From: a virus
Reading direction: 5' to 3' (one strand)
Length of the DNA: 64,000 bases
IMG/VR virus record: IMGVR_UViG_3300017991_000051
Coordinates: 32,001-96,000 of that record
Position 1 is the first letter of the stretch. Each line of letters starts with the position of its first letter. The notes under the pieces are model-generated. The model made no database searches, was not told where the DNA came from, and saw only the letters and a list, made by a program, of their open reading frames with translations. The position numbers and the translations under genes are program-made. Below, piece by piece: positions 4,685 through 20,599 of this stretch.

Positions 4685-4903
4685 TTATGTTCGTTTCCAA
4701 AACCGCGTCGCGTTTTTCCAGCGTACGCGTTCGCGTTCCGTACCTGGCGCCTGGTCGTACCCCACTACCTTGCGCCCGCAAACTGGACAACACTGCTGGT
4801 CGTCCGTTATCGCCGCCCCGCAACATTGCGTGAACATCGTACTGTTTGTTCCCTGTGGCATTAGCGGCACTATATCAACGATAACATCTTCGTTATAGTG
4901 CAT
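4685..4903 (-). CDS. small zinc-ribbon protein
   Basis: TQCCG...CPVCG, AGGAGG RBS. Confidence 0.7.
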   Translation of the reverse strand: MHYNEDVIVDIVPLMPQGTNSTMFTQCCGAAITDDQQCCPVCGRKVVGYDQAPGTERERVRWKNATRFWKRT

Positions 4904-4905
4904 GA

Positions 4906-5082
4906 TTACCTCCTCAGCTGTATCGCTGCTATAAACACAGTCGCAAACAATGCCCAGAAGAGCATCATCCCTATCGCATATTTTATTGCGTCACCATTAG
5001 TGGGACAGATATCCTGCGACGTACCGCGTTCCGGCCTGTTCACGCGTTCAGCGTTCCACCATTTTCTAAACCGATTTATCAC
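4906..5082 (-). CDS. small membrane protein (58 aa, not in the ORF track)
   Basis: AAAGGAGG RBS + GTG; hydrophobic C-terminus MMLFWALFATVFIAAI; start abuts attC1. Confidence 0.6.
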   Translation of the reverse strand: MINRFRKWWNAERVNRPERGTSQDICPTNGDAIKYAIGMMLFWALFATVFIAAIQLRR

Positions 5083-5092
5083 TACTTCCTCC

Positions 5093-5151
5093 TTTCAACG
5101 CGAAGCTGAAGGCGACGCGGTAGATCGCGCGCCTTAGCTCAATCGTTGGAA
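5093..5151 (+). repeat. attC1 (59 bp, family A)
   Basis: TTTCAAC GCGAA GCTGAAGG CGACGCGG TAGA TCGCGCG CCTTAGC TCAATC GTTGGAA. Confidence 0.9.
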
Positions 5152-5358
5152 CTCTTGATGAATCTCAAAAGCGTAAATAGTTTTCAGTACGGCTATCACT
5201 GCCTCAATATGTGGCTTGGCCACAAACTTCGGTGTGCATACTTTTCCGTCTGGGCTATGCTTCCATTCGTCGGGGCTCTCGGCCCACGCTTCCAGCTGGC
5301 CGTCATCCAGCGTCTTGAAATGAAACTGCCAATCGTGTCGAGGTAAAACCGATAACAT
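5134..5358 (-). CDS. cassette hypothetical protein (bottom strand)
   Basis: GGAGG RBS, MLSVLPRHDW..., stop inside attC1. Confidence 0.6.
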   Translation of the reverse strand: MLSVLPRHDWQFHFKTLDDGQLEAWAESPDEWKHSPDGKVCTPKFVAKPHIEAVIAVLKTIYAFEIHQEFQRLS

Positions 5359-5371
5359 AGGAGAATCCTCC

Positions 5372-5605
5372 ATGGCTCAGGTTATGAATGAACATTGCAT
5401 GCGTTTTGCTGGGCAGCTCCATACCGTTAGTCAGACATGGGACGAATACCAGCTAACCGTAACGATCAGTCCACCATCTAAGCCACTGGCGAAACGATTG
5501 TCACAGTTGTTGACACCGACGAACCAGCTAATGCTGATTTTCAACGAAGGTGCTTGGGAGTTCCAACAAGGAGCTGAAGGCGACGCGGTAAACCGCGCGC
5601 CTTAG
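5372..5605 (+). CDS. cassette hypothetical protein (top strand)
   Basis: AGGAG RBS, 77 aa, stop inside attC2. Confidence 0.55.
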   Translation: MAQVMNEHCMRFAGQLHTVSQTWDEYQLTVTISPPSKPLAKRLSQLLTPTNQLMLIFNEGAWEFQQGAEGDAVNRAP

Positions 5606-5619
5606 CTCAACCGTTGAAA
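5561..5619 (+). repeat. attC2 (59 bp, family A)
   Basis: TTCCAAC AAGGA GCTGAAGG...CCTTAGC TCAACC GTTGAAA; GAGTTCCAAC complements the cassette start GTTGGAACTC. Confidence 0.92.
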
Positions 5620-5627
5620 GGTAAACA

Positions 5628-5918
5628 TTATGGAACTTGAACAGTGTTGTCAGAATCCGGCGTGTCCGGACAAAGGTGCCCCGCTACACACTTATACCAC
5701 GGAGCTAATGGCTCACGAGGATCCAGCTCTACCCACGTCTGACACAATAGCGGATACGGACCGCCCGACTTCTCACACAGAGTGTAGCCCAACTTTTCTA
5801 CTTCTTGTCTGCTCAGCTTGCGGTCTGACACGAATGTTTCATCATGAGACACAACTGCAATCGTCCGCCCGTCATCGTCCAGAACGGGGGTCACTTTTGT
5901 AACTTGTGCTGCAAACAT
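5628..5918 (-). CDS. cassette hypothetical protein (bottom strand)
   Basis: AAAGGAGG RBS directly next to attC3, 96 aa. Confidence 0.6.
   Translation of the reverse strand: MFAAQVTKVTPVLDDDGRTIAVVSHDETFVSDRKLSRQEVEKLGYTLCEKSGGPYPLLCQTWVELDPREPLAPWYKCVAGHLCPDTPDSDNTVQVP
5630..5902 (+). CDS. cassette Cys-rich hypothetical protein (top strand)
   Basis: ATG 17 nt after the cassette GTT; CCQNPAC...CSACG. Confidence 0.5.
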   Translation: MELEQCCQNPACPDKGAPLHTYTTELMAHEDPALPTSDTIADTDRPTSHTECSPTFLLLVCSACGLTRMFHHETQLQSSARHRPERGSLL

Positions 5919-5928
5919 TATAACCTCC

Positions 5929-5987
5929 TTTCAACAAGGAGCTGAAGGCGACGCGGTTGCCCGCGCGCCTTAGCTCAACCGTTGTCT
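5929..5987 (+). repeat. attC3 (59 bp, family A)
   Basis: TTTCAAC...GTTGTCT, same core as attC2. Confidence 0.92.
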
Positions 5988-6226
5988 GCATTGAACTGGC
6001 GCTGTACTGGCTGCGCCATGATGATGTGCTGTGCTGCGTGAATCGCGCGGCGAAATTCGGTAGTTTCGTCGGAATGCACCGAGTTAAGTCGCACAAACTA
6101 GTTCCATGCGTCTGCCAGTCTGCTCACGACCGAATTTTCGGCGGCAGACAACAAAGAGGTGGACGGCGACACGGAAACCGCGCCGACCTCCTCTGTTGCT
6201 TCGTTGCGTTGTTCAGCGGTTTCCAT
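5975..6226 (-). pseudogene. cassette gene interrupted by an in-frame TAG at 6098-6100
   Basis: GGAGGTGA RBS + ATG inside attC4; reads METAEQ...LADAWN*FVRLNSVHSDETTEFRRAIHAAQHIIMAQ. Confidence 0.55.
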
Positions 6227-6249
6227 GCGCGTCACCTCCAGCGTTGGCA
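6146..6249 (+). repeat. attC4 (104 bp)
   Basis: AGACAAC AAAGA GGTGGACG...CGTCACC TCCAGC GTTGGCA; GCAGACAAC complements GTTGTCTGC. Confidence 0.85.
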
Positions 6250-6266
6250 ATGAAAGGAATACAGAG

Positions 6267-6455
6267 ATGAAGTACGTTGTTTATCTTGTCGGCCTACCAG
6301 TTGAAAACGGTATAGAAATCCGAAGTGATGAGGATTTACTAACTCTGTTTCGACAGGACGCCGACCCAAATCGTATTATCTCCGTCTCCCGTTATAAACC
6401 AAACGACACACTACTCCGCGTGTCGTCTATCGCGCTTCTCTCCAAGAAAGATTGA
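6267..6455 (+). CDS. cassette hypothetical protein (top strand, 62 aa)
   Basis: AAAGGA RBS, MKYVVYLVG... Confidence 0.6.
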   Translation: MKYVVYLVGLPVENGIEIRSDEDLLTLFRQDADPNRIISVSRYKPNDTLLRVSSIALLSKKD

Positions 6456-6584
6456 CGCGGCACGCTCAGCCGCGTTCGCAAGAGTAACTACGCGATCGAA
6501 AAACACCTTGTCCGGTTCTGCCGGATCTTTTTTACTGAGTTCACACTGAAGCACAATATTGAATCGTTCCTGCTTATAGTTCAT
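6411..6584 (-). CDS. cassette hypothetical protein (bottom strand, 57 aa, not in the ORF track)
   Basis: TAGGAGG RBS, MNYKQERFNIVLQCELSKKD...RRHAE*. Confidence 0.55.
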   Translation of the reverse strand: MNYKQERFNIVLQCELSKKDPAEPDKVFFDRVVTLANAAERAASIFLGEKRDRRHAE

Positions 6585-6865
6585 TTTAACCTCCTAATGA
6601 AATTGCCAACAACGCACTGCACGCTATCGGCGTAGGACGCCGAAGCGTGAGTGCAAACGTTCTGCTTTAGGGTTTCCAGCGCCACCAATGCTTCGTCAAT
6701 GTCGCGGATGTTCTCTTGCTCGGCGTCGTCACCGTCAAGGAAGCGTGCCATGTATGCTCTGGCTTTCCACGATTTCCGTGTGTCACGCAGCACCCGCTCG
6801 ATTGTGTGCAAAGCAGAACAATCGGATGGACAACTACCTTCATTCGCCGCGCTTCGCTTTCTCAT
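6581..6865 (-). CDS. cassette hypothetical protein reading through attC5
   Basis: Starts in the attC6 loop; stop overlaps the next ATG (ATGA). Confidence 0.55.
   Translation of the reverse strand: MRKRSAANEGSCPSDCSALHTIERVLRDTRKSWKARAYMARFLDGDDAEQENIRDIDEALVALETLKQNVCTHASASYADSVQCVVGNFIRRLK
6604..6665 (+). repeat. attC5 (62 bp)
   Basis: TGCCAAC AACGC ACTGCACG...CGTGAGT GCAAAC GTTCTGC. Confidence 0.85.
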
Positions 6866-6892
6866 TTCGGAGTGTCATCCTTTCCGTTAGAC
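6813..6892 (+). repeat. attC6 (80 bp)
   Basis: GCAGAAC AATCG GATGGACA...TGTCATC CTTTCC GTTAGAC; AAAGCAGAAC complements GTTCTGCTTT. Confidence 0.82.
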
Positions 6893-6898
6893 AGCAAC

Positions 6899-7144
6899 TC
6901 AGCGTGCAACGCCGCGAAGCTGCATGAACTTCTTTCCGATGCTTTCCACAACGCACTTAGCCTCTGCACCTTCCTCGTTGCGGACGTAGACCGTCTCACC
7001 GTTGCGGAAGATCGGCCACAACCTCTCATCTTGTAGGCTGTTGCGCTTCGGGCCTTCCATGCGGTCGAGGATCTCATCCCTCATGGACTTCAGGGTGGCC
7101 ACATCTTCCGCCGTCTCAAACGTTCCTGTATCTGGTCTTTGCAT
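6899..7144 (-). CDS. cassette hypothetical protein
   Basis: AGAAAGGA RBS, 81 aa, fills the cassette. Confidence 0.7.
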   Translation of the reverse strand: MQRPDTGTFETAEDVATLKSMRDEILDRMEGPKRNSLQDERLWPIFRNGETVYVRNEEGAEAKCVVESIGKKFMQLRGVAR

Positions 7145-7163
7145 GTCTGTCCTTTCTGTTGCT

Positions 7164-7220
7164 GTCTAACAACTCACTTGAACCGACGCCTAAAGGCGCG
7201 GCTCACTTCGGGCGTTAGAT
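7164..7220 (+). repeat. attC7 (57 bp)
   Basis: GTCTAAC AACTC ACTTGAAC...GTTAGAT; 13-bp cassette-end complement GTTAGACAGCAAC/GTTGCTGTCTAAC. Confidence 0.85.
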
Positions 7221-7469
7221 TGCCCTTGTGTTCCAGTTGTCCAACGCCTTTTCAAGCGTTTCTCCTGTTGTCTGCGGAGTCACAGGGCATTCCTCGTTGT
7301 CACAGCCCACAAAGTGTTTGGTCGGTGCGCCTCCGTGCCACGGCTCAATGTCTGGCAACATGCCGCAGAATGGGCAATCTAACAAAGCACTGGACTGTAC
7401 TTCTGAAAGCCGCACGTCCGACTTGCCTGAGTGTGATTCAAACACATAGCATCCATTCTCATTTATCAT
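7215..7469 (-). CDS. Lar family restriction alleviation-like protein (cassette)
   Basis: LLDCPFCG...FVGCDNEEC...EKALDNWNTRA is the Lar-like pattern; RBS and ATG lie in the attC8 loop. Confidence 0.75.
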   Translation of the reverse strand: MINENGCYVFESHSGKSDVRLSEVQSSALLDCPFCGMLPDIEPWHGGAPTKHFVGCDNEECPVTPQTTGETLEKALDNWNTRAI

Positions 7470-7519
7470 CGTTGTTCCTTTCCCCGGCTTTCAGAAGCCA
7501 GTCAGTTTATGCGTTGGGT
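7377..7519 (+). repeat. attC8 (143 bp, long loop)
   Basis: ATCTAAC AAAGC ACTGGACT..CTTCTGAAAGCCG...CGGCTTTCAGAAG..AGTCAGT TTATGC GTTGGGT. Confidence 0.85.
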
Positions 7520-7522
7520 TGC

Positions 7523-7714
7523 TCAGTCCTGTCCCTGTCCATGTGACGGCCCCTGTACGAGCCGGTACATCTCCGGCGGAAGGCTGAAGTTTAGAAACTG
7601 ATCGCAGTCCTTCCAACCGTCTTCCCTCAACGCTTGCAGTTTGGTATCCGTCATTCCCCATGCAATCATCAGCTTGCCCATTTCGACTGCCTGTTCTCTT
7701 GTGTAGCCTTTCAT
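7523..7714 (-). CDS. cassette phage-type hypothetical protein
   Basis: AAGGAGAAGG RBS; MKGYTREQA...WKDCD...YRLV. Confidence 0.7.
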   Translation of the reverse strand: MKGYTREQAVEMGKLMIAWGMTDTKLQALREDGWKDCDQFLNFSLPPEMYRLVQGPSHGQGQD

Positions 7715-7736
7715 CGTCCTTCTCCTTTCGTTCGCA

Positions 7737-7794
7737 ACCCAACAACCCCGTGCACCCGACTCGCTAAGGCTCGCGGGTAACGGCGGCGTTAGAT
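7737..7794 (+). repeat. attC9 (58 bp)
   Basis: ACCCAAC AACCC CGTGCACC...GGTAACG GCGGC GTTAGAT. Confidence 0.85.
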
Positions 7795-8043
7795 TTCCAG
7801 CCTTAGCAACTCAACAACTTTACGGTCCTGTTCGTTTCCTGTCTCAATCGTCAAACGGCCTTCCTCGAACGCCCTTCGCACGAATGGTCCCAACAAGCCG
7901 ACTTGATCCCCGTACACTTTCATCTTGTCATAGATGTAACCGATACTGTTGCCCATGTAGGTCTGGTTTGCCAACGAATGTTGTAGGTGCTCGATTTCAT
8001 CCTTCAACTCATTCAGATCGTCCAACTCAACCTCAACCTTCAT
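7789..8043 (-). CDS. cassette hypothetical protein
   Basis: AAGGAGG RBS, MKVEVELDD..., stop on the GTT(A) crossover site. Confidence 0.7.
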   Translation of the reverse strand: MKVEVELDDLNELKDEIEHLQHSLANQTYMGNSIGYIYDKMKVYGDQVGLLGPFVRRAFEEGRLTIETGNEQDRKVVELLRLEI

Positions 8044-8067
8044 ACCTGCCTCCTTTTGCGGCTGGAA

Positions 8068-8127
8068 ATCTAACAACTGCGTGGACGTTATCGGCTACCC
8101 GCCGAAACGTCACGCGACGCGTTGGAC
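8068..8127 (+). repeat. attC10 (60 bp)
   Basis: ATCTAAC AACTG CGTGGACG...CGTCACG CGACGC GTTGGAC; 15-bp cassette-end complement. Confidence 0.87.
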
Positions 8128-8306
8128 ATATTGACTGCCGCGTGCGCAACGGGCTTGCCGCAGATCACGCATTTCCCGGCGCTGTCCGGCCTGACTTTGT
8201 GCTTGCCGCCCATGTAGCAAGCGCCATAATACAACCCGCACCACTTACGATGCTTGGCCCAGTCGAACACCATGAGTCCGCATCTCGGGCACTTGTCACA
8301 CGTCAC
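8088..8306 (-). CDS. cassette Cys-rich small protein
   Basis: AAGGAG RBS + GTG; CPRCG...CVICG. Confidence 0.6.
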   Translation of the reverse strand: MTCDKCPRCGLMVFDWAKHRKWCGLYYGACYMGGKHKVRPDSAGKCVICGKPVAHAAVNMSNASRDVSAGSR

Positions 8307-8322
8307 GTTGGTTCTCCTTCCT

Positions 8323-8358
8323 GCCCAACAACTCACTTGAACCGACGCCTATCGGGCG
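8323..8358 (+). repeat. attC11, truncated or internally deleted
   Basis: Left arm identical to attC7 (AAC AACTC ACTTGAACCGACGCCTA); right arm missing. Confidence 0.65.
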
Positions 8359-8360
8359 TA

Positions 8361-8561
8361 TCATCCTCGCCTCGCTTTCTCGCACCGCTTGCACAGGCGA
8401 CGGTTCGGTGGGGGGTGGGTGGTTTCGTGCCAGCCAGCCCATTCGTGCCAAACAGTTAAGCAGTTGGTTATCCCCCAATGCTCGCGCTCGGTGACGTGAA
8501 ACCTGTGGCGGATTACATGGTACACCCTGCCTCGGGCGGTGTGGGCGTAGCGGGGGGTCAT
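8361..8561 (-). CDS. hypothetical protein (non-cassette segment)
   Basis: MTPRYAH...LCKRC; coupled to the upstream ORF. Confidence 0.5.
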   Translation of the reverse strand: MTPRYAHTARGRVYHVIRHRFHVTEREHWGITNCLTVWHEWAGWHETTHPPPNRRLCKRCEKARRG

Positions 8562-8761
8562 AATGCACCATCCTCGTCGGGCCGCTGGTGGTCGCTGGCA
8601 AGACGCCCCAAGCGCACCCGCACGTCGGGGTGCAGAAGGTTGTTGCCATCCAGCCAACACTCAAACTCATGTAGGATGCCGTTGACGCCAACAGTCACGA
8701 GGCACTCCTGAATGTTCTCTACGCGCTGGTCTAGGAATGTTCCGAATAATGATGGTCCCAT
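8558..8761 (-). CDS. hypothetical protein (non-cassette segment)
   Basis: AAGGAGG RBS, MGPSLFG... Confidence 0.55.
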   Translation of the reverse strand: MGPSLFGTFLDQRVENIQECLVTVGVNGILHEFECWLDGNNLLHPDVRVRLGRLASDHQRPDEDGAL

Positions 8762-8858
8762 TTTGCCCTCCTTTGTCGTGCCTTCCTCATATCGCCTTCC
8801 GGCAAATCTGCTCGCCACGGGGTCCAATATCCTGTTATCAGGCAAAATCGCCTGTCAA

Positions 8859-9065
8859 TCAGTGGTTGGGCGTATCACTTTCACCGCCTCCCACGAAATG
8901 CGGAATGGTACACCCCGCAAACATCGCCGCCTTTTGCAGAAAGTCCTGCCGACCCTCGGCGGTGTCATCGGGAGGCCACACAAACTTCTCGATGATTTCC
9001 TTGGCCCGCGTCAGTTCCTCGTTCAACTCCGTGATCTTGATCGCTCGTCTGTCTGCCTTGTTCAT
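8859..9065 (-). CDS. cassette hypothetical protein
   Basis: GAGGAGG RBS, MNKADRRA... Confidence 0.65.
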   Translation of the reverse strand: MNKADRRAIKITELNEELTRAKEIIEKFVWPPDDTAEGRQDFLQKAAMFAGCTIPHFVGGGESDTPNH

Positions 9066-9076
9066 CGGTCCTCCTC

Positions 9077-9138
9077 GCCCAACCAAGGGCTGCAATCTAC
9101 CTCGCTATTCGCTCGGAGCTTGAGCCCCGGCGTTCTGC
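9077..9138 (+). repeat. attC12 (62 bp)
   Basis: GCCCAAC CAAGG GCTGCAAT...CTTGAGC CCCGGC GTTCTGC. Confidence 0.8.
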
Positions 9139-9368
9139 GCCATTCGTTTCTTGGCCTCATTCTCAAGCTCAAGCCGTCGTATTTCATTTTCAACCTTCAT
9201 TTCCCAATCAAGCTCTTGCAGATTGTGGGCCTTAATCCATGAATCTACTCGCCGCTTCTTGATCCACTCCGTATAGCGCAGAACAAGGCGCTGGACACTA
9301 CGGCTTGCCCGCAGTTTCCAAACCCGACCCATTCTGCACAGCCATTGCCACAGATTCTCGTGCATCAC
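9105..9368 (-). CDS. cassette hypothetical protein starting in the attC13 loop
   Basis: AAGGAGG RBS inside attC13; 87 aa. Confidence 0.65.
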   Translation of the reverse strand: MMHENLWQWLCRMGRVWKLRASRSVQRLVLRYTEWIKKRRVDSWIKAHNLQELDWEMKVENEIRRLELENEAKKRMAQNAGAQAPSE

Positions 9369-9413
9369 GCCTCCTTGTTGTCGGCAAGCCGAGTGTCAGC
9401 TTGCACGTTGGAG
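9278..9413 (+). repeat. attC13 (136 bp, long loop)
   Basis: GCAGAAC AAGGC GCTGGACA..CGGCTTGCC...GGCAAGCCG..TGTCAGC TTGCAC GTTGGAG. Confidence 0.85.
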
Positions 9414-9424
9414 TAACCAAAACA

Positions 9425-9667
9425 ATGAATAATGAAAATACCTTATGGGAGCAACTTGATGATGCTCTGAAGCGTATCGAGCAACTTGAGCACCAAGTAG
9501 CTACGATCCGGAGGAAGACTAGCGCGAGCATCAATGGGTACGCCCGCGTTCTCCACAAGATCGCCGCCCACTTGGGTCTCAGCCGGTGTTTCACATTTTG
9601 CAGCACGATCGATGTCGGCGATGCTGACAGAGTCGTTATGCGGCATATTACACCTCCTTTAGATTAA
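9425..9667 (+). CDS. cassette coiled-coil protein (paralogue of 10898-11143)
   Basis: MNNENTLWEQLDDALKRIEQLEHQV...; many differences from the paralogue are synonymous in this frame. Confidence 0.75.
   Translation: MNNENTLWEQLDDALKRIEQLEHQVATIRRKTSASINGYARVLHKIAAHLGLSRCFTFCSTIDVGDADRVVMRHITPPLD
9443..9646 (-). CDS. antisense cassette ORF (paralogue of 10916-11122)
   Basis: AAAGGAGG RBS + ATG; codon-registered antisense to the top-strand gene. Confidence 0.45.
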   Translation of the reverse strand: MPHNDSVSIADIDRAAKCETPAETQVGGDLVENAGVPIDARASLPPDRSYLVLKLLDTLQSIIKLLP

Positions 9668-9671
9668 AAAA

Positions 9672-9730
9672 CTCCAACAAGGAGCTGAAGGCGACGCGGT
9701 TGCCCGCGCGCCTTAGCTCAACCGTTGGAA
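9672..9730 (+). repeat. attC14 (59 bp, family A)
   Basis: CTCCAAC...GTTGGAA. Confidence 0.92.
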
Positions 9731-9736
9731 ACCGAT

Positions 9737-9964
9737 ATGAAAAAACAAAACACAAAAGCATTGCTCGACCGCCTAGACGAACTTATCGATCAGTTGCCAA
9801 CCGATGAACAACGCCAGTTCCATGTTCACGCGCTGTGGAATTTGTTGTCTCTGCATGCCATTGCTGATGTGCAACGTAAACTTGCTCTAATGTCAGGCTT
9901 GTTCGGTCTCCTTGGCGTGCTTCTCGGCGCGGCTCTAACATACATAATACAACGGTACAAATGA
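9737..9964 (+). CDS. cassette small membrane protein (top strand)
   Basis: MKKQNTK...; C-terminal hydrophobic helix GLFGLLGVLLGAALTYII. Confidence 0.65.
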   Translation: MKKQNTKALLDRLDELIDQLPTDEQRQFHVHALWNLLSLHAIADVQRKLALMSGLFGLLGVLLGAALTYIIQRYK

Positions 9965-10016
9965 CCAAGCCGGTAACAATACCAATACAGCCACCGATAA
10001 TTCCATGGGATATCAT
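9783..10016 (-). CDS. antisense cassette membrane-anchored ORF
   Basis: AGAGGAGG RBS; N-terminal hydrophobic helix IIGGCIGIVTGLVICTVVLCML. Confidence 0.5.
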   Translation of the reverse strand: MISHGIIGGCIGIVTGLVICTVVLCMLEPRREARQGDRTSLTLEQVYVAHQQWHAETTNSTAREHGTGVVHRLATDR

Positions 10017-10035
10017 AAACACCTCCTCTAATTGT

Positions 10036-10094
10036 TTCCAACAAGGAGCTGAAGGCGACGCGGTAGATCGCGCGCCTTAGCTCAACCGTTGTGA
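10036..10094 (+). repeat. attC15 (59 bp, family A)
   Basis: TTCCAAC...GTTGTGA. Confidence 0.92.
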
Positions 10095-10097
10095 AAT

Positions 10098-10316
10098 ATG
10101 ATTATTCAAGTACCTAACTCATTACGTCGTCGGTTTGTTGCGGGCTGCCGAACGCTCGGGCTCGATCCGAGTCTAAGCGTTGATCTATCGAAAGATCAGT
10201 TGCCCGAGTATCATGTACAGACAGAGACCCCGGAACAGCGGGCGGGTTTGCATCGTCTCTGCGCAGCCTTATCGCTCTCGCAAGAACAACTGCCGCCGCA
10301 TGCCGAAGAGACGTGA
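10098..10316 (+). CDS. cassette hypothetical protein (top strand)
   Basis: 72 aa; resembles 11545-11778 (LxxLCAA...PH). Confidence 0.55.
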   Translation: MIIQVPNSLRRRFVAGCRTLGLDPSLSVDLSKDQLPEYHVQTETPEQRAGLHRLCAALSLSQEQLPPHAEET

Positions 10317-10461
10317 GTAGAAATATGTCGTCAGGTTCAACGTATTTGCGAAGCTCGGGTTTTATCTCAAGCACACCCATGTCAAAATATGCGTACTCTC
10401 CGTCTTTGTTTATCAATGAGCCCGGTACTCTATCGTTCAAAAATTCCAATATATCGATCAT
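10114..10461 (-). CDS. cassette hypothetical protein (bottom strand)
   Basis: GGAGGT RBS, MIDILEFL..., 115 aa. Confidence 0.6.
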   Translation of the reverse strand: MIDILEFLNDRVPGSLINKDGEYAYFDMGVLEIKPELRKYVEPDDIFLLTSLRHAAAVVLARAIRLRRDDANPPAVPGSLSVHDTRATDLSIDQRLDSDRARAFGSPQQTDDVMS

Positions 10462-10473
10462 GTATACCTCCAT

Positions 10474-10534
10474 TCACAACAAACGGCTGGAGCTTACCGG
10501 CTAAGGCGCCGGAAGCTCAGCCGCATCGTTGGAC
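10474..10534 (+). repeat. attC16 (61 bp, family B)
   Basis: TCACAAC AAACG GCTGGAGC TTACCGGC TAAGGC GCCGGAA GCTCAGC CGCATC GTTGGAC. Confidence 0.9.
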
Positions 10535-10809
10535 TTAAGATAGGAACACAGTTCATGAACGAAGTTATTCAACAGATCAAGGAGCACTTCGCCGCTGGGG
10601 CCTCCTCCGTGACTCTCGTCTACTCCGACCGCACTGTGTTCATACACGCTCTTCCGCGGAATCCGAGTCCGGAGCAGACCTACGCCTATCGCGCGTTCTG
10701 TTCTCGAATCGAAAAAGATCTCGATACTCTCCATGTTATTGACGTCCGGCAAGGAGTTTGGCTCCGCCAGTACGACACCGTTTCCGGAAAATTCAGTCTT
10801 GTCCGCCAT
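10501..10809 (-). CDS. antisense cassette ORF (102 aa)
   Basis: CAGGAGG RBS, MADKTEF... Confidence 0.5.
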   Translation of the reverse strand: MADKTEFSGNGVVLAEPNSLPDVNNMESIEIFFDSRTERAIGVGLLRTRIPRKSVYEHSAVGVDESHGGGPSGEVLLDLLNNFVHELCSYLKSNDAAELPAP

Positions 10810-10815
10810 GATTAA
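10555..10815 (+). CDS. cassette hypothetical protein (top strand)
   Basis: AGGA RBS, 86 aa, fills the cassette. Confidence 0.6.
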   Translation: MNEVIQQIKEHFAAGASSVTLVYSDRTVFIHALPRNPSPEQTYAYRAFCSRIEKDLDTLHVIDVRQGVWLRQYDTVSGKFSLVRHD

Positions 10816-10827
10816 AACCTCCTGATT

Positions 10828-10886
10828 GTCCAACAAGGAGCTGAAGGCGACGCGGTAAACCGCGCGCCTTAGCTCAACCGTTGGAG
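10828..10886 (+). repeat. attC17 (59 bp, family A)
   Basis: GTCCAAC...GTTGGAG. Confidence 0.92.
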
Positions 10887-10897
10887 TAACCAAAACA

Positions 10898-11143
10898 ATG
10901 AATAATGAAAATACCTTATGGGAGCAACTTGATGATGCTCTGAAGCGTATCGAGCAGCTTGAGCACCAGGTTGAAACGATCCGAAGAGAGACCAATACGG
11001 TCATTAACGGATACGCCCGCGTGCTCCACCACATCACCACCCTTCTTAAAATCAGGGATGACGTTGTGCTTTGCGACACTACCGACGTCGGTAGTGAGAA
11101 CGTGATCATGCGTCGTGCCCATAATAAACCTCCACTAGATTAA
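10898..11143 (+). CDS. cassette coiled-coil protein (paralogue of 9425-9667)
   Basis: First 25 aa identical to the paralogue. Confidence 0.75.
   Translation: MNNENTLWEQLDDALKRIEQLEHQVETIRRETNTVINGYARVLHHITTLLKIRDDVVLCDTTDVGSENVIMRRAHNKPPLD
10916..11122 (-). CDS. antisense cassette ORF (paralogue of 9443-9646)
   Basis: GGAGG RBS; same stop position as the paralogue. Confidence 0.45.
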   Translation of the reverse strand: MGTTHDHVLTTDVGSVAKHNVIPDFKKGGDVVEHAGVSVNDRIGLSSDRFNLVLKLLDTLQSIIKLLP

Positions 11144-11149
11144 AGAAGA

Positions 11150-11208
11150 CTCCAACAAGGAGCTGAAGGCGACGCGGTAGACCGCGCGCCTTAGCTCAAC
11201 CGTTCGCA
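11150..11208 (+). repeat. attC18 (59 bp, family A)
   Basis: CTCCAAC...GTTCGCA. Confidence 0.92.
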
Positions 11209-11225
11209 AATAGAAAGGAAACGTA

Positions 11226-11480
11226 ATGACTCCAGACCAGCAAGCCGATCTTGAAGGACGTCTCCTCATGCTGGAAGCGCTCGTTCAGATGTTTCTGGTG
11301 GAACATCTTCGCCGAGCGCCTGATATCGTATCGGATGCGGGAGCGCTGACCACCGACTGCCTGAAGTCGTTTGCTTCTGCGCCCCCTCCAGTTTCTGAGC
11401 GAGCTGCCGCAAGATTGCGGCAACTGCTTGACGCAAGTATCGCATGCGCATCTGTACTTCCTCCTTTTCCTTTGTATTGA
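11226..11480 (+). CDS. cassette hypothetical protein (top strand)
   Basis: AAAGGA RBS, 84 aa, stop just before attC19. Confidence 0.65.
   Translation: MTPDQQADLEGRLLMLEALVQMFLVEHLRRAPDIVSDAGALTTDCLKSFASAPPPVSERAAARLRQLLDASIACASVLPPFPLY
11266..11451 (-). CDS. antisense cassette ORF
   Basis: AAAGGAGG RBS, 61 aa. Confidence 0.45.
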   Translation of the reverse strand: MRMRYLRQAVAAILRQLAQKLEGAQKQTTSGSRWSALPHPIRYQALGEDVPPETSERALPA

Positions 11481-11483
11481 TGT

Positions 11484-11542
11484 TGCGAACAAGGAGCTGA
11501 AGGCGACGCGGTTGCCCGCGCGCCTTAGCTCAACCGTTGGCA
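11484..11542 (+). repeat. attC19 (59 bp, family A)
   Basis: TGCGAAC...GTTGGCA. Confidence 0.92.
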
Positions 11543-11896
11543 TTATGATTGTAGATCTATCCAATCTTCCTCAATCCACGCTTGTCGCGCTAACGCAAGC
11601 CAGTCGCGAGTGCGGATTGACCGTTTCGAGTTCAGCTCCGGTATCTCCACTGGGCCCGACCAGCCTACGGATATATCTTGATCGGACTGAACTTCCGATG
11701 TTACAGCAGCTTTGCGCCGCACAAGGCGTTCGGCTAAATCCTTGGCCACATCTGCCAGACGCTTTGCAAGCCACTTAGTATCCTCAAGCTCCAACGGCTG
11801 ATACGCCGCACGGACCGCCATCGCCCCAAAAACGATGCAGCGGTCATCAACAACTACGTCGATTAGCGGATGAAGAACATCTGTAACCTCTATCAT
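11543..11896 (-). CDS. cassette hypothetical protein (bottom strand)
   Basis: AAGGAG RBS, 117 aa. Confidence 0.6.
   Translation of the reverse strand: MIEVTDVLHPLIDVVVDDRCIVFGAMAVRAAYQPLELEDTKWLAKRLADVAKDLAERLVRRKAAVTSEVQSDQDISVGWSGPVEIPELNSKRSIRTRDWLALARQAWIEEDWIDLQS
11545..11778 (+). CDS. cassette hypothetical protein (top strand)
   Basis: MIVDLSNL...LQQLCAA...PH; resembles 10098-10316. Confidence 0.55.
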   Translation: MIVDLSNLPQSTLVALTQASRECGLTVSSSAPVSPLGPTSLRIYLDRTELPMLQQLCAAQGVRLNPWPHLPDALQAT

Positions 11897-11913
11897 GATA
11901 TTGACTCCTTACA

Positions 11914-11974
11914 TGCCAACAATCGGCTGGAGCTTACCGGCTATGGCGCCGGAAGCTCAGCCGCAACGTTACGC
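11914..11974 (+). repeat. attC20 (61 bp, family B), last site of the array
   Basis: TGCCAAC AATCG GCTGGAGC...GCTCAGC CGCAAC GTTACGC. Confidence 0.9.
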
Positions 11975-17602: not shown

Positions 17603-20599
17603 TTACGCCGCATTCTTCAGTTCCAGTTTCGCTTCCTCGATTGCATCTTTCAGCTTCATCTTCTCACTCCAGCGTCGCATGACTTCAGTGTCAATATTGA
17701 TATGCAGTTTCGTATTCGGAATCCGCACGGATTTGGTCATGCATAACGGCAGGACCTCGTTGAGTACTTGATCCACCTCATCCAGTGGAGTATCCAAGAA
17801 GATCGCGTCGTGCACTGGGAGCACGATCTTGAACTTCATTCCCGCCTGTGCCCTGTACAGGAATACATTGTACAATGCCACGCTAAGCGCGTCGGCTACC
17901 GTCCCCTGAATAGGCATGTTCTGTGCCTGTCTCTCCTGCGACTTCAGCGTCCCGCTATCCTTCGTAGGATAGAAGTAGCGACGCCGGCCGTAGGCGTTTT
18001 CCACATAGCCCGGGTCGATTACTGCCGCATGACAGTCGGTCACGTAGTCCCGGACCTTTGGAAACTTCTCGAAGAAGTTGTTGATCAACATCTGCATCTT
18101 CGCCGAGTCGGCTTCGACGCCCTCGGTCATCGCCTGCCGGACCAGAGCGTTAGCTCCCCGCCCGTACGCGATTCCGAAGTTCACGTTCTTCGCCATCACC
18201 CGCTGCTTGGGATGCAGTTTCTTCACCTCGTTCGGCGCACAGCCCAGATTGAAGGCTGTAACCGCCATCTCCGAGTGCAGGTCCCGCGAGCTGTCGCTCA
18301 TCACCGCGATCATGTCCGGATCCCCGGACAGATGGGCCAGTACCTGCAACTCAGCCTGAACGTAATCCGCCTCGATCAGGATATGCCCCGGCGATGCCTG
18401 TAGGCAGCTCCGAAGCGAATAGTACCCCGGGTTAAGCAGACCGAGATCCTTAAGTTCCTGTACCTGCATACCACCCCACCCATGGGTGTCCAGCAGCTTC
18501 GGGAGGTTGGTGCTGAAAATCTGTATCAGCTCCGCCTCCTGCTTCTTCGGCAGGTTCTGCAGGTTGGGCTCCGATGACTTGTACCGGCCGGTGTCAGTCA
18601 GCTGGCTGACGCTCGTGCGGATACGTTTGTCGTGATCCACCTCGTACACCAGTCCGCCGTTCCATTCCAGCTCCCCCGTCTCCTTCGACGGTTCCGGCGG
18701 TCGCAGGAAGTTCTTGATGATCTGATCGACGAATCTCAGCTTCTGCAGCTTCTCCGCCAGCGGGTGCTCCGCCCCGTAGATCTGCAGCACCTCCGCGTCC
18801 GTAGACGGGAACACGAGGTTCTTATCGATGTCCTCGATGGGGACGCGGCCCCAGTCACGCGACGGCTTCTCCGTCGTCTTGATCGGATACAGCGAGAGCG
18901 TCATCGCCCCCTCCGGACGCTTGGGCTCCTTACCGAATGTACGGCTGAACAGGAACTCCCGCACGTTGTCGACCGATCGGAAGTTGAACAACGGCCACTT
19001 GATCTCCGTCTGGAAGTCGCTGACCATCGCATCGCGCTGGCGAACGAACAACTCCGTCAACCGCTTCATACGATCGCTGTCGCTGTAGACACCCACAGTC
19101 TCCACCTCATGGAGGGGAATGCCGCAAGGCTGCACCACGTACTGATACAGGTCCCACAGCGTACGTACTTGGACGCCGGGCAACAGCTCATACGGGTGTG
19201 TAACCGCTTGGGCCTGCAACTGCTCCTTGAGATGGTCCCAGCAACGCATTACCACATCGGTATCGGCAGGCGCATACACTGGGTTCAGCAGCTCATCGGG
19301 CACGAAGGCGAAACCATGCTTCCGCATCTTCCGCTTGCCGCTGTCGCTCTTCTTGGTCTTTGACTGCGACGTGTAACCGTTCTCCGACAGCCACTGTTTG
19401 ACCGGGAGGTCGTAACGTCCCATATCAGTAAAGCGTACTGCCAAGTTCTCCAACGCGTGCCCCTCCGCCGCCGGATGGCGCATATGGTACATCAGCATCG
19501 TATCCACGCCGTTCTTAAAGAACTGATCGCTGCAATCGATACCATACCGCTTCAACCACTTCAAGTCTCCGCGGAAGTTGTGGCCGCCTATCTGCACGTC
19601 GGGCAGACACATGATCCGCTTCAACTGCTCAACAGCCGCCTTCTCCTCGCAACACGTATCCGGATCGTACAGCAGGCCGCAGCGCCGGAGGATCACGCAG
19701 TAGGATCTGTGTGACGCCGGCGAGAACTGAATAGTCCTCAGCTTTCCCTTCAGATAATCCGCGCCGTTGAGACCGCCCCACTCGCAGTCTACGCCCAGCC
19801 GTTTCGGCTGATCGGGGTGTGCTTCCCACTCCGCGAGAATGCCGTCGACCACCTCCGTCAGTCTCCAAACGGACGTGATCTCCTCGTAATTGACCGGCGC
19901 CGCCTCCGGCACCGTGCCGTCCCCCCTCACAAGGCCCACGAATGTACGGAAGTCGCGCTCAAAGCCTGGGCGTAACTCCGGTGACTTCAGCACCGCTGCC
20001 GGGTGCGTGGTCACGAGCACGCGCGCTCCATTGTATGTCAGGTTGGTCGCGCCGCGGAACTTCTTGAGGGAAGAACCCTTCCCCATCACGGCCTTTACCG
20101 CGTCCGCGCCCAGCAGGAGTATGAACTCCGGCTCGAGCAACGCCAACTCCGCATCCAACAGGGGCTTGCACTCCTTCAGCCACGCGGCCTTCAACGTCTT
20201 GGCACCGTACGGCGGCATGAACCGAACCACGTTCGTTGTATACCAGTCGTCGTATTCGACGTTCAGGCTGCTCAGCACCTCACGTATCAGCTCCCCACTG
20301 GGGCCGACGAATAGCTCACGCTTTGATTGCTCTTCGCGCCACGGCATCTTCCCGATGATAACCACTTTTGAAGGCTTCTTCAGGTCGGGCCCGCGCCTGC
20401 CGCCCAGCGTATTGCCGGGGAGGAACGTGACGTTGGTCGTGTTCCCCATCTTGTCCGTCGTCGGCAAATCGACTGCATTGTACAGCATCTTGCACGTAAA
20501 GGTCTCGATATCGACGCCCGCCAACTCAGCGCCGGCGGTAACCAATGGACCGTATCTTATCCCCGCCTCCGGCGCTTCGTCTTTTTTCTTCTTAGCCAT
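17603..20599 (-). CDS. polA: family A DNA polymerase with N-terminal UDG-like and 3'-5' exonuclease domains
   Basis: Motif A ADYVQAEL, motif B RVMAKNVNFGIAYG, motif C VHDA; exonuclease VDCE/GHNFRGD; UDG-like FVGPSG...THPAAVL. Confidence 0.93.
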   Translation of the reverse strand: MAKKKKDEAPEAGIRYGPLVTAGAELAGVDIETFTCKMLYNAVDLPTTDKMGNTTNVTFLPGNTLGGRRGPDLKKPSKVVIIGKMPWREEQSKRELFVGPSGELIREVLSSLNVEYDDWYTTNVVRFMPPYGAKTLKAAWLKECKPLLDAELALLEPEFILLLGADAVKAVMGKGSSLKKFRGATNLTYNGARVLVTTHPAAVLKSPELRPGFERDFRTFVGLVRGDGTVPEAAPVNYEEITSVWRLTEVVDGILAEWEAHPDQPKRLGVDCEWGGLNGADYLKGKLRTIQFSPASHRSYCVILRRCGLLYDPDTCCEEKAAVEQLKRIMCLPDVQIGGHNFRGDLKWLKRYGIDCSDQFFKNGVDTMLMYHMRHPAAEGHALENLAVRFTDMGRYDLPVKQWLSENGYTSQSKTKKSDSGKRKMRKHGFAFVPDELLNPVYAPADTDVVMRCWDHLKEQLQAQAVTHPYELLPGVQVRTLWDLYQYVVQPCGIPLHEVETVGVYSDSDRMKRLTELFVRQRDAMVSDFQTEIKWPLFNFRSVDNVREFLFSRTFGKEPKRPEGAMTLSLYPIKTTEKPSRDWGRVPIEDIDKNLVFPSTDAEVLQIYGAEHPLAEKLQKLRFVDQIIKNFLRPPEPSKETGELEWNGGLVYEVDHDKRIRTSVSQLTDTGRYKSSEPNLQNLPKKQEAELIQIFSTNLPKLLDTHGWGGMQVQELKDLGLLNPGYYSLRSCLQASPGHILIEADYVQAELQVLAHLSGDPDMIAVMSDSSRDLHSEMAVTAFNLGCAPNEVKKLHPKQRVMAKNVNFGIAYGRGANALVRQAMTEGVEADSAKMQMLINNFFEKFPKVRDYVTDCHAAVIDPGYVENAYGRRRYFYPTKDSGTLKSQERQAQNMPIQGTVADALSVALYNVFLYRAQAGMKFKIVLPVHDAIFLDTPLDEVDQVLNEVLPLCMTKSVRIPNTKLHINIDTEVMRRWSEKMKLKDAIEEAKLELKNAA

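Follow-up and report, generated by a model that had tools for sequence, protein, structure and literature searches.

Can a small integron cassette encode a gene on each of its strands, and how would a phage come to carry about ten cassettes of this kind? Long antiparallel gene overlaps maintained by selection are rare and disputed in prokaryotes. The question is raised by a 64-kb stretch of DNA (hereafter the window) that is part of the complete 169-kb genome of a large virus from sediment. An earlier note on this DNA had interpreted its cassettes as two-faced, with the top gene read from a host integron promoter and the bottom gene by the phage, and this interpretation is partly supported by the analyses described below.

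A cassette array lying backwards in a phage genome

The phage, which is probably lytic, encodes its own DNA polymerase A, no tyrosine or serine recombinase exceeded the cut-off in it, and no ParA was found. Since no match to PF00589 was found across the complete genome, the intI gene of a complete integron is missing, and the cluster of at least 16 attC sites at 5093-11974 thus represents a CALIN. The sites, 55-104 nt long, display R'' (AAC), the L''/L' boxes with an extra base, R' (GTT) and a bottom-strand hairpin (folds of -24 to -42 kcal/mol), and the same attC family flanks bacterial cassettes in 104 metagenome loci. The GTT is the exact start of both copies of a duplicated cassette (9407 and 10880), the preceding DNA being unrelated; this is an indirect sign of recombination by IntI at G/TT, as is the occurrence of its gene family in other arrays. 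The array may have been docked at the attI-like site at its left end. It is oriented backwards relative to phage transcription, half of its cassettes coding on both strands, and the bottom genes indeed face the phage's leftward transcription, as had been proposed: of the 186 ORFs with a strong SD across the genome, 171 belong to the minus strand (a bias of 171:15).

Table 1. Features of the cassette array. ORF coordinates include the stop codon; SD energies are in kcal/mol.
Feature	Position	Strand	Remarks
attI-like simple site	4879-4898	+	AAC, 6-nt spacer, GTT; by eye from sequence; left array end
Bottom gene of cassette 4892-5145	5082-4906	-	GTG start, SD -11.9
attC, family A	5093-5151	+	
Unit 5145-5381, top ORF	5158-5346	+	62 aa; unit without own attC
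Unit 5145-5381, bottom ORF	5358-5134	-	74 aa, SD -9.3; codon-aligned beneath top ORF
Top-only cassette gene	5384-5605	+	73 aa; cassette 5381-5565, without antisense SD
attC, family A, of top-only cassette	5561-5619	+	
Cassette 5613, top ORF	5630-5902	+	90 aa; two Cys-pair motifs (zinc-ribbon-like, by eye)
Cassette 5613, bottom ORF	5918-5628	-	96 aa, SD -13.1
attC, family A, after cassette 5613	5929-5987		
Long attC	6146-6249	+	similar sites in other sediment contigs
Cassette 6243, top ORF	6267-6455	+	62 aa; hairpin at 6455-6475
Cassette 6243, bottom ORF	6584-6411	-	57 aa, SD -11.4; tail-to-tail with top ORF, 45-nt overlap
attC, B-like, after cassette 6243	about 6604-6665		
Bottom-only ('inverted') cassettes	6659-9406	-	varied attC sites at 7164, 7737, 8068, 8323, 9077
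Lar-like gene in bottom-only stretch	7469-7215	-	
Degenerate attC, bottom-only stretch	near 9380-9413		
Cassette 9407, top gene	9425-9667	+	80 aa, coiled-coil family; C-terminal extension spans bottom ATG and SD
Cassette 9407, bottom ORF	9646-9443	-	67 aa, SD -15.5; codon-aligned
attC, family A	9672-9730	+	
Cassette 9724, top ORF	9737-9964	+	75 aa; hydrophobic C-terminal segment (membrane helix by eye)
Cassette 9724, bottom ORF	10016-9783	-	77 aa, SD -15.0; hydrophobic N-terminal segment beyond overlap
attC, family A	10036-10094	+	
Cassette 10088, top ORF	10098-10316	+	72 aa
Cassette 10088, bottom ORF	10461-10114	-	115 aa, SD -10.7; unshared N-terminus of 49 aa with real-protein composition; search for a homologue found none
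attC, family B	10474-10534	+	
Cassette 10528, top ORF	10555-10815	+	86 aa; stop between bottom SD and ATG; Atlas recognition value 2379 (protein-like)
Cassette 10528, bottom ORF	10809-10501	-	102 aa, SD -11.5; stop within preceding attC
attC, family A	10828-10886	+	
Cassette 10880, top gene	10898-11143	+	81 aa; paralogue of 9425-9667
Cassette 10880, bottom ORF	11122-10916	-	68 aa, SD -10.5; paralogue of 9646-9443
attC, family A	11150-11208	+	
Cassette 11202, top ORF	11226-11480	+	84 aa; bottom SD read through as Pro-Pro
Cassette 11202, bottom ORF	11451-11266	-	61 aa, SD -11.8
attC, family A	11484-11542	+	
Cassette 11536, top ORF	11545-11778	+	77 aa
Cassette 11536, bottom ORF	11896-11543	-	117 aa, SD -7.7; unshared N-terminus of 40 aa
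attC, family B, right array end	11914-11974	+	

Cassettes with an ORF on each strand

The two-strand cassette pattern is real. All nine dual cassettes listed in the earlier note (seven at 9407-11974, plus 5613 and 6243) were upheld, and a tenth unit, 5145-5381, had been overlooked; the locus thus holds, in one place, about ten dual pairs of some eight kinds. The ten top ORFs start, as described before, just past the GTT (ATG 9-27 nt past its G) and run toward R'' in the manner of a cassette gene, matching bacterial cassette genes in both their position and their weak SDs (-1.5 to -5.9). Five of them end 8-31 nt from R'', and four stop 76-162 nt short of it, the gap being occupied by the 5' part of the bottom gene. 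The bottom ORFs (57-117 aa) likewise proved to be placed as described, with ATGs 15-37 nt inside R'' and strong SDs (-7.7 to -15.5), and most of them extend nearly to the preceding attC. Long antiparallel overlaps, of 182-273 nt, occur in nine units; the two ORFs were said to overlap in all nine cassettes then recognized, but those of cassette 6243 share only 45 nt, tail to tail. Gene callers chose the bottom ORF in eight of nine cassettes and the top ORF in two, keeping one ORF only in most.

The pattern is not universal, contrary to the claim that every cassette with a family A or B site is dual: the cassette at 5381-5565 is top-only, and at 4892-5097 a bottom gene is accompanied on the top strand only by a GTG-start, shadow-like ORF. 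No clear gene was found in cassette 5981-6243. In the bottom-only cassettes 6688, 7228, 8142 and 8478, chance top ORFs appear once the search admits GTG starts or an offset of 30 nt. The metagenome locus L069 is also of the inverted kind, having bottom-strand genes whose SD and ATG adjoin R''.

The cassettes are also less unrelated than had been stated. Those at 9407 and 10880, which share 87% identity over a stretch of 164 nt, are paralogues, and those at 10088 and 11536 are probably old, distant ones, judging from the similarity of their top ORFs (z 4.3); no similarity was detectable between their bottom proteins (z 1.15). Both frames, the SDs and the lengths have been kept in the latter pair despite deep divergence. 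In both pairs, the top protein is the more conserved one.

The consistent placement of the ORFs had been considered unlikely to arise by chance, and the tests agree. Given the bottom protein, the top ORF is expected with per-cassette P values of 0.0003-0.25 (as high as 0.18-0.25 for 5613 and 10528) and a joint P of about 1e-14, a figure that counts paralogues separately; given the top protein, the joint P for the bottom ATG and ORF is about 1e-13, falling to 1e-22 once the SD is included. A comparison with bacterial cassettes, proposed together with the original claim, revealed an antisense SD with ATG in none of 72 bacterial cassette ends with the same attC family, and both ORFs in two of 90 complete bacterial cassettes. 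Among 78 small phage genes lying beyond the array, a comparable antisense ORF accompanies about 8%. Four of the seven independent long overlaps are in a register left open by chance in only 3-7% of cases, and chance alone would leave 16-46% of 65-codon stretches open in the codon-aligned antisense register. The unshared parts of top and bottom ORFs have the composition of real proteins (in four cassettes, over 17-49 bottom-only codons), and that of the overlaps is intermediate.

An antisense frame constrained in bacteria

Outside the phage, relatives could be traced for a single family; the remaining ORFs are singletons or yielded no relatives. The top gene of cassettes 9407 and 10880 belongs to a coiled-coil family of ~70 aa with 19 homologues, found in ordinary bacterial cassettes (canonical ones at loci L109, L117 and L118). 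Its protein yields a confident structure model with a long helix, and the model of the bottom protein is poor except for the last helix (pLDDT 58). Comparison of the two phage copies, a check suggested earlier, gave an omega of 0.38 for the top and 0.58 for the bottom frame, in line with selection on both. Single-base changes at top positions 3 and 2 stand at 14:1, so the top frame is not a mere shadow.

Across 11 bacterial loci of the family, the antisense frame contains four stops against 15.7 expected. These are confined to three of the loci; the top gene is therefore able to persist alone, a poor fit for an obligatory antitoxin. In each of two columns, CTT (antisense Lys) is the Leu codon of 10 of the 11 sequences (background 14-25%); no conserved RNA structure to account for these columns was found, and both fixed CTT codons are lost in the locus bearing two antisense stops. 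In the antisense-only stretch of L109, L118 and L125, variation falls mostly at positions synonymous in the antisense frame, and the stretch encoding the bottom C-terminal helix has only two changes, synonymous on both strands (P 0.016-0.044). Family-wide antisense identity is only slightly above the null (0.263 versus 0.238 +/- 0.008), the homologues not being independent. As the antisense frame is constrained in bacterial homologues too, the pair predates the phage, and overprinting inside the phage, one of the options raised earlier, is disfavoured for this traceable family. Conservation among homologues, however, extends to the frame and not to the strong antisense SD, which was not seen in the bacterial homologues and may thus be an addition made on the phage side; in the phage copies, the top protein is lengthened by about 14 codons that contain the bottom SD and ATG.

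Selection in both frames is hence found for the 9407/10880 family and partly for the 10088/11536 pair. Comparison shows, firmly for the one and partly for the other, what appears to be a conventional cassette gene under protein-level selection on the top strand, and an opposite strand that likewise seems to be held open and under constraint, as is the case in bacteria already. The bottom ORFs have no homologues among called proteins, and no ORF of the set has a significant match to defence, toxin or phage families in PADLOC, Pfam or PHROGs.

Origin and possible role of the paired ORFs

It is very likely that both strands are selected as ORFs, and the bottom products probably matter as proteins, to judge from the sequence comparisons. 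We also lean towards pairs born in the host rather than overprinted in the phage. The best explanation as a whole, namely integron cassettes holding antiparallel overlapping gene pairs, is plausible rather than probable. The cassettes would have been built in the host's integron, as their uniform host-type attC sites suggest, and inserted by the host integrase into the phage array. Because the array lies backwards to the leftward transcript, the phage would use the strong SDs to translate the bottom genes and would produce antisense RNA to the top genes; it would have retained mainly the rare host cassettes with a gene on the back strand. For function, the likeliest proposal, a tentative one akin to the toxin/antitoxin-like pairs named earlier, casts the top gene as an effector on the host side, either anti-phage or toxic, and the bottom gene, which evolves faster, as its antidote or regulator. 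The direction of transcription would set the switch, as it does for Tha/Ith, so that carrying the cassette backwards would supply the phage with the antidote. The retention of top frames in a lytic phage counts against the explanation as a whole unless capture was recent or repeated. A still broader proposal, rather doubtful as it stands, is that bacterial integrons contain a class of cassettes in which one strand encodes a defence or toxic gene and the other its antidote, and that lytic phages harvest these via the host integrase into a backwards array, their own transcription then making the antidotes and silencing the effectors.

Other explanations differ in whether the bottom peptides matter and where they arose. 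Captured top-strand cassettes would be untranslated on the leftward transcript, and selection may have added a start site (SD and ATG) with an open frame simply so that ribosomes cover this RNA and avert its termination or decay, the bottom peptides being irrelevant. The greater conservation of the top protein in both paralogue pairs, the restriction of the strong SD to phage copies, the reach of most bottom ORFs nearly to the previous attC, the ease with which the codon-aligned frame stays open and the poor bottom fold all agree with such relief of polarity. We consider it unlikely, as bacterial loci already show a constrained antisense frame, four of the seven overlaps use the register hardest to open, the bottom-only codons look like real protein, and the same array tolerates a top-only and an empty cassette; ribosome coupling in its pure form, suggested before, is disfavoured. 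Two accessory genes may instead share DNA without any functional link between their proteins, limits on cassette size favouring compression, with the top one serving the host or a rightward phage transcript and the bottom one the phage. All evidence for selection on both strands applies equally here, loci with the top gene alone exist, and olg1 / gene 10 of phage Fc02 (PMC9936078) provides a precedent. This plain two-faced cassette nevertheless seems improbable to us: it leaves unexplained, barring a promoter of its own, how the antisense gene is kept up in bacteria without the phage transcript, and rightward promoters in the phage are at chance level (seven found versus 7.8 expected).

Birth of the bottom genes in the phage by antisense overprinting would make dual cassettes intermediates toward the bottom-only ones within the same array (in some cassettes the top ORF would be the newer). 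It would account for bottom ORFs without called homologues, for the top extension holding the SD and ATG, and for the intermediate composition of the overlaps. We regard it as quite unlikely, given that the antisense ORF is older than the phage in the traceable family, that all ten top frames are intact with none decaying, and that the near-identical attC copies suggest a making too recent for ten separate births. Finally, the pattern may be a coincidence in which a single strand is real, either as inverted cassettes whose top ORFs are shadows or the other way round, as the preference of gene callers for the bottom ORF, the weak top SDs and the chance values for 5613 and 10528 might imply. Joint probabilities that do not exceed 1e-13 in either direction, a top family with 19 homologues and the lack of bottom SDs at the 72 control ends refute this very remote explanation for the set; single cassettes such as 5613, 10528 and 5145 may fit it.

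Comparison with known systems

CALINs and integron cassettes occur in phage genomes (Qi et al. 2023, PMC9892861), and the present array resembles them as an attC-bounded series of cassettes in a phage without an integrase; gene orientation is not discussed in that study, whereas here the array is backwards and half of it dual-coding. No dual-coded cassettes in phages were found in the published literature. The closest parallels in layout are Tha/Ith of S. aureus prophages (PMC11087260; Tha has a HEPN domain) and Tai/Ati of phi80 (PMC11364771), each a defence gene and its antisense inhibitor in a noncontiguous operon. There, as here, two small genes lie on opposite strands, the direction of transcription would set their expression and the lytic-side gene could be the antidote. 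Those are, however, prophage loci with demonstrated defence and inhibition, whereas the present putative pairs are about ten mobile attC cassettes of some eight kinds, with overlaps of up to 180-270 nt and no significant match to known defence proteins, in a phage that looks lytic rather than temperate; their layout fits opposed transcription, and promoter scans are at chance level. In Pseudomonas phage Fc02, olg1 and gene 10 are fully antiparallel overlapping genes, each with shown exclusion activity (PMC9936078), and similar in being read oppositely in different states; that single locus belongs to a temperate phage, is not cassette-borne and is likened by layout only. Cassettes of sedentary chromosomal integrons often encode small anti-phage genes (10.1101/2024.07.02.601686), which are similarly small (one or two genes, down to 64 aa) and often domainless; they are bacterial, tested and coded on a single strand, and ours have no PADLOC match.

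Significance

The approximately ten pairs are discrete, clonable units of 270-390 bp, one of them with comparative support from bacterial homologues, which opens both dual coding and the origin of backwards phage cassettes to direct tests. Because gene callers kept one ORF in most dual cassettes, annotation of integron cassettes is implied to miss a gene on one strand. Should the pairs indeed consist of an effector and its antidote, they would represent a new route of phage counter-defence, and cassette layout alone would predict defence genes together with their inhibitors. If such cassettes are harvested from hosts, the array would be an updatable anti-defence library made from the hosts' own defence cassettes.

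Two-strand layout of the cassettes

The layout described in the earlier note, in which an ORF in the canonical cassette position on the plus (top) strand overlaps a minus-strand (bottom) ORF with a strong Shine–Dalgarno (SD) sequence, is confirmed with small corrections in all seven cassettes of the region 9407-11974, and in cassettes 5613 and 6243 (each named by the window position of the G of its GTT). The top ATG of these nine lies 9-27 nt past that G and opens 62-90 codons, and the bottom ATG lies 15-37 nt inside R'' and opens 57-117 codons. The bottom SDs reach -7.7 to -15.5 kcal/mol; the top ones are weak (-1.5 to -5.9 kcal/mol), as is usual in the cassettes of bacteria (median -3.4). 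The broader claim that every cassette bounded by family A or B attC sites is dual holds for ten units, including one that has lost its own attC, but fails for two family A cassettes (5381, top-only, and 4892, bottom-only), and in 6243 a tail-to-tail pair overlaps by just 45 nt. Unit 6243 may consist of two fused cassettes. A third open frame of 202 aa was rejected as a shadow, because it has wobble positions in common with the top gene and lacks a conserved start or SD.

That such consistent placement is unlikely by chance is borne out in both directions. With the synonymous codons of the bottom genes resampled and the flanks shuffled, the top ORF arose in 0.03-25% of trials per cassette (joint ~1e-14); the reverse test, of the bottom ORF, gave a joint value of ~1e-13, or ~1e-22 when the SD was included. 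A comparable antisense ORF accompanies ~8% of small phage genes outside the array. At 104 metagenome loci (L numbers), the same attC family flanks bacterial cassettes of the ordinary kind, which allowed the comparison of phage-borne with bacterial cassettes proposed earlier: an antisense SD with ATG occurs at 0/72 bacterial cassette ends, as against the nine attC-bounded phage cassettes, and both ORFs are present in two of 90 complete bacterial cassettes. We consider it extremely improbable that the dual pattern is due to chance.

Features of the array, its surroundings and related metagenome loci (window positions unless a locus is named)
Feature	Position	Observation
attC sites (at least 16)	5093-11974	Top strand on plus for all
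attI-like simple site	4879-4898	Left end of array; recognized by eye
Phage gene	4903-4685	Start overlapped by attI-like site
Tenth dual unit	5145-5381	Own attC lost
Short cassette	5981-6150	No clear ORF on either strand; terminal attC of 104 nt, to which sites in other sediment contigs are related
Hairpin	6455-6475	Directly after top stop of 6243; similar to the right half of a family B attC including its GTT
Lar-like gene	7215-7469	Bottom-only; restriction-alleviation-like domain (E 5.5e-6, slightly short of the cut-off)
attC-like site	8323-8473	Unusually long (~150 nt), G-rich middle; first 34 nt near-repeat of attC 7164
Third open frame	11109-10501; also 9606-9298	Rejected
DNA polymerase A	17603-20599	Fused to uracil-DNA-glycosylase-superfamily domain
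IS110-family transposases	L117:4580-7573; L118:571-1683	Within bacterial cassette arrays; in L117 one lies directly behind R'' of the attC of the top-family gene
Sigma-70-like match	L109:991-1018	Weak; ends directly before antisense ATG at 990
Bottom-only genes	L069:1-1003; also L098, L045, L004	Same attC family

Evidence from the top strand

A profile of the top gene duplicated in the paralogous cassettes 9407 and 10880 (starts at 9425 and 10898) recovered 19 homologues, 31-48% identical, which form a family of ~70-aa proteins that was missed by the single-sequence search with the 9425 top; single-sequence searches with the 10461 bottom and 10555 top likewise gave no match. L109, L117 and L118 carry homologues as canonical cassette genes, and one homologue adjoins PSCyt2, PSD1 and DUF1501 genes, which are typical of Planctomycetes and Verrucomicrobia. 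The family is predicted to form one long helix with a short tail (pLDDT 82); its coiled-coil matches were generic, and none was accepted as a function. The two phage copies show an omega of 0.38 in the top frame, and their single-base differences fall on top position 3 in 14 cases and on position 2 in one, a pattern not expected from a bottom-only gene; the top strand is therefore real. The first ~78 bases of the two cassettes are identical (9407-9490 and 10880-10963), and in top codons 47-72 there are 43 differences over 78 bases, a contrast that may reflect recent recombination or a hypervariable end.

The tops of cassettes 10088 and 11536, both with family B attC, in the same register and of similar lengths, also align with each other (z 4.3, p 0.0004, or ~0.014 over 36 pairs). 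Because this likeness was detected only by global alignment against shuffles, with no BLASTP match between the 10098 and 11545 tops, their paralogy is probable, not certain.

Constraint on the bottom strand

In 11 bacterial loci of the top family, the codon-aligned antisense frame contains 4 stops, where neighbouring genes would predict 15.7 (Poisson p 5e-4, for sequences that are not independent). At each of two columns, 10 of the 11 sequences encode leucine with CTT (lysine in antisense), against a background of 14-25%, and third positions of the family are otherwise near saturation. As causes of the fixed CTT codons, we rejected RNA structure, no conserved one being predicted, and codon context, from which CTT would be expected at only 20-25%. 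The antisense frame is lost in three of these loci, and L112, with two antisense stops, has lost both CTT codons. Beyond the stop of the top ORF, L109, L118 and L125 have a common antisense-only motif, varying largely at synonymous positions. Antisense identity lies only a little above expectation (0.263 vs 0.238), and the bottom-protein model is poor apart from the last helix, in which the phage pair 9407/10880 shows only two changes, synonymous on both strands (P 0.016-0.044). The expectation that the antisense signals are conserved among homologues is thus upheld for the frame but not for the strong SD, which was detected in the phage copies alone. The sigma-70-like match in L109, at chance level, would fit a leaderless antisense transcript, and L069 resembles a further inverted array of the phage type.

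Relatives of six of the pairs were not traceable. In four of the seven independent long overlaps, each wobble base falls on the second position of the other frame, a register open by chance in 3-7% of cases vs 16-46% for the codon-aligned one; from these rates, we estimate p ~0.003 for such use of the hard-to-open register. In composition, the stretches of either ORF outside the overlap resemble real proteins, and those inside it are for the most part intermediate between real and shadow sequence. The comparison of sequences shows that both frames are selected and that, in one family (9407/10880), the pairing is of bacterial origin.

The phage and its array

The window covers bases 32001-96000 of the complete phage genome (169,252 bp, with terminal repeats), whose products include a DNA polymerase A of the phage's own, helicases and an SbcC-like ATPase. 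The genome lacks a tyrosine recombinase and ParA, and no serine recombinase in it exceeds the cut-off, so we infer that the phage is probably lytic. As many as 171 of its 186 strong-SD ORFs lie on the minus strand, and the array would therefore be read leftwards. The attI-like site overlaps the start of the adjoining phage gene, so that a rightward cassette promoter would have no evident place there, and promoter scans gave matches at chance level. By definition the array is a CALIN and not a complete integron.

The best-matching sequencing run comes from a sediment metagenome, possibly the source of the phage. No RNA dataset appears among the runs listed. Metagenome contigs aligned to the region carry no variants within the ORFs. 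Neither the viral contigs nor the GenBank phages searched included a related phage or array, and genome searches around two MAGs that carry the attC gave weak coiled-coil matches only and no further sites. A 298-nt contig (depth ~3), identical in two runs and hence one observation, fuses cassette 5613 to 9724 via two identical attC copies (5931 to 9675), omitting 3,743 bp; it could have arisen by attC x attC excision or by homologous recombination, or the assembly may have bridged the 53-nt repeat.

Possible roles of the paired genes

Phage CALINs have been described, with no comment on gene orientation (PMC9892861), and the known antiparallel gene pairs of phages occur one at a time (PMC9936078). 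Our literature search turned up neither dual-coding cassettes nor inverted arrays in phages. Pfam, PHROGs and PADLOC gave no significant family for any cassette ORF, Atlas look-alikes all scored under 0.9, and modelling the top and bottom proteins as a complex (score 0.00) weighs neither way.

We propose that host-made cassettes would be inserted by the host's integrase into an array oriented backwards to phage transcription, so that bottom genes would be translated and antisense RNA to the top genes produced, and that the phage would retain chiefly cassettes with a usable back-strand gene. Such cassettes are rare in bacteria and make up half of this array. New arrivals are expected at the attI end, and the top-only (5381) and empty (5981) cassettes sit near the attI-like site, where recent arrivals would thus lie. 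The top gene might further be an effector and the bottom gene its antidote, with the direction of transcription as the switch. This hypothesis draws on analogy with the prophage pairs Tha/Ith (PMC11087260) and Tai/Ati (PMC11364771), each a defence gene with an antisense inhibitor, on the many small defence genes of integron cassettes (10.1101/2024.07.02.601686), and on the stronger conservation of the top partner. The cassette pairs may work like Tha/Ith; they are not members of that system, since there is no homology and the phage shows no sign of lysogeny.

The earlier idea of two-faced cassettes is supported in part, as regards selection on both frames. Homology lends an effector/antidote function no support: the Pfam, PHROGs and PADLOC searches revealed no defence or toxin relatives. 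Among other explanations, relief of polarity is unlikely, as is the mere sharing of DNA by two unlinked genes, and de novo overprinting is less likely still. The Lar-like gene would represent counter-defence-type cargo of the array. As the boldest reading, we suggest, with considerable doubt, that the phage may hold an anti-defence library harvested from the cassettes of its hosts.
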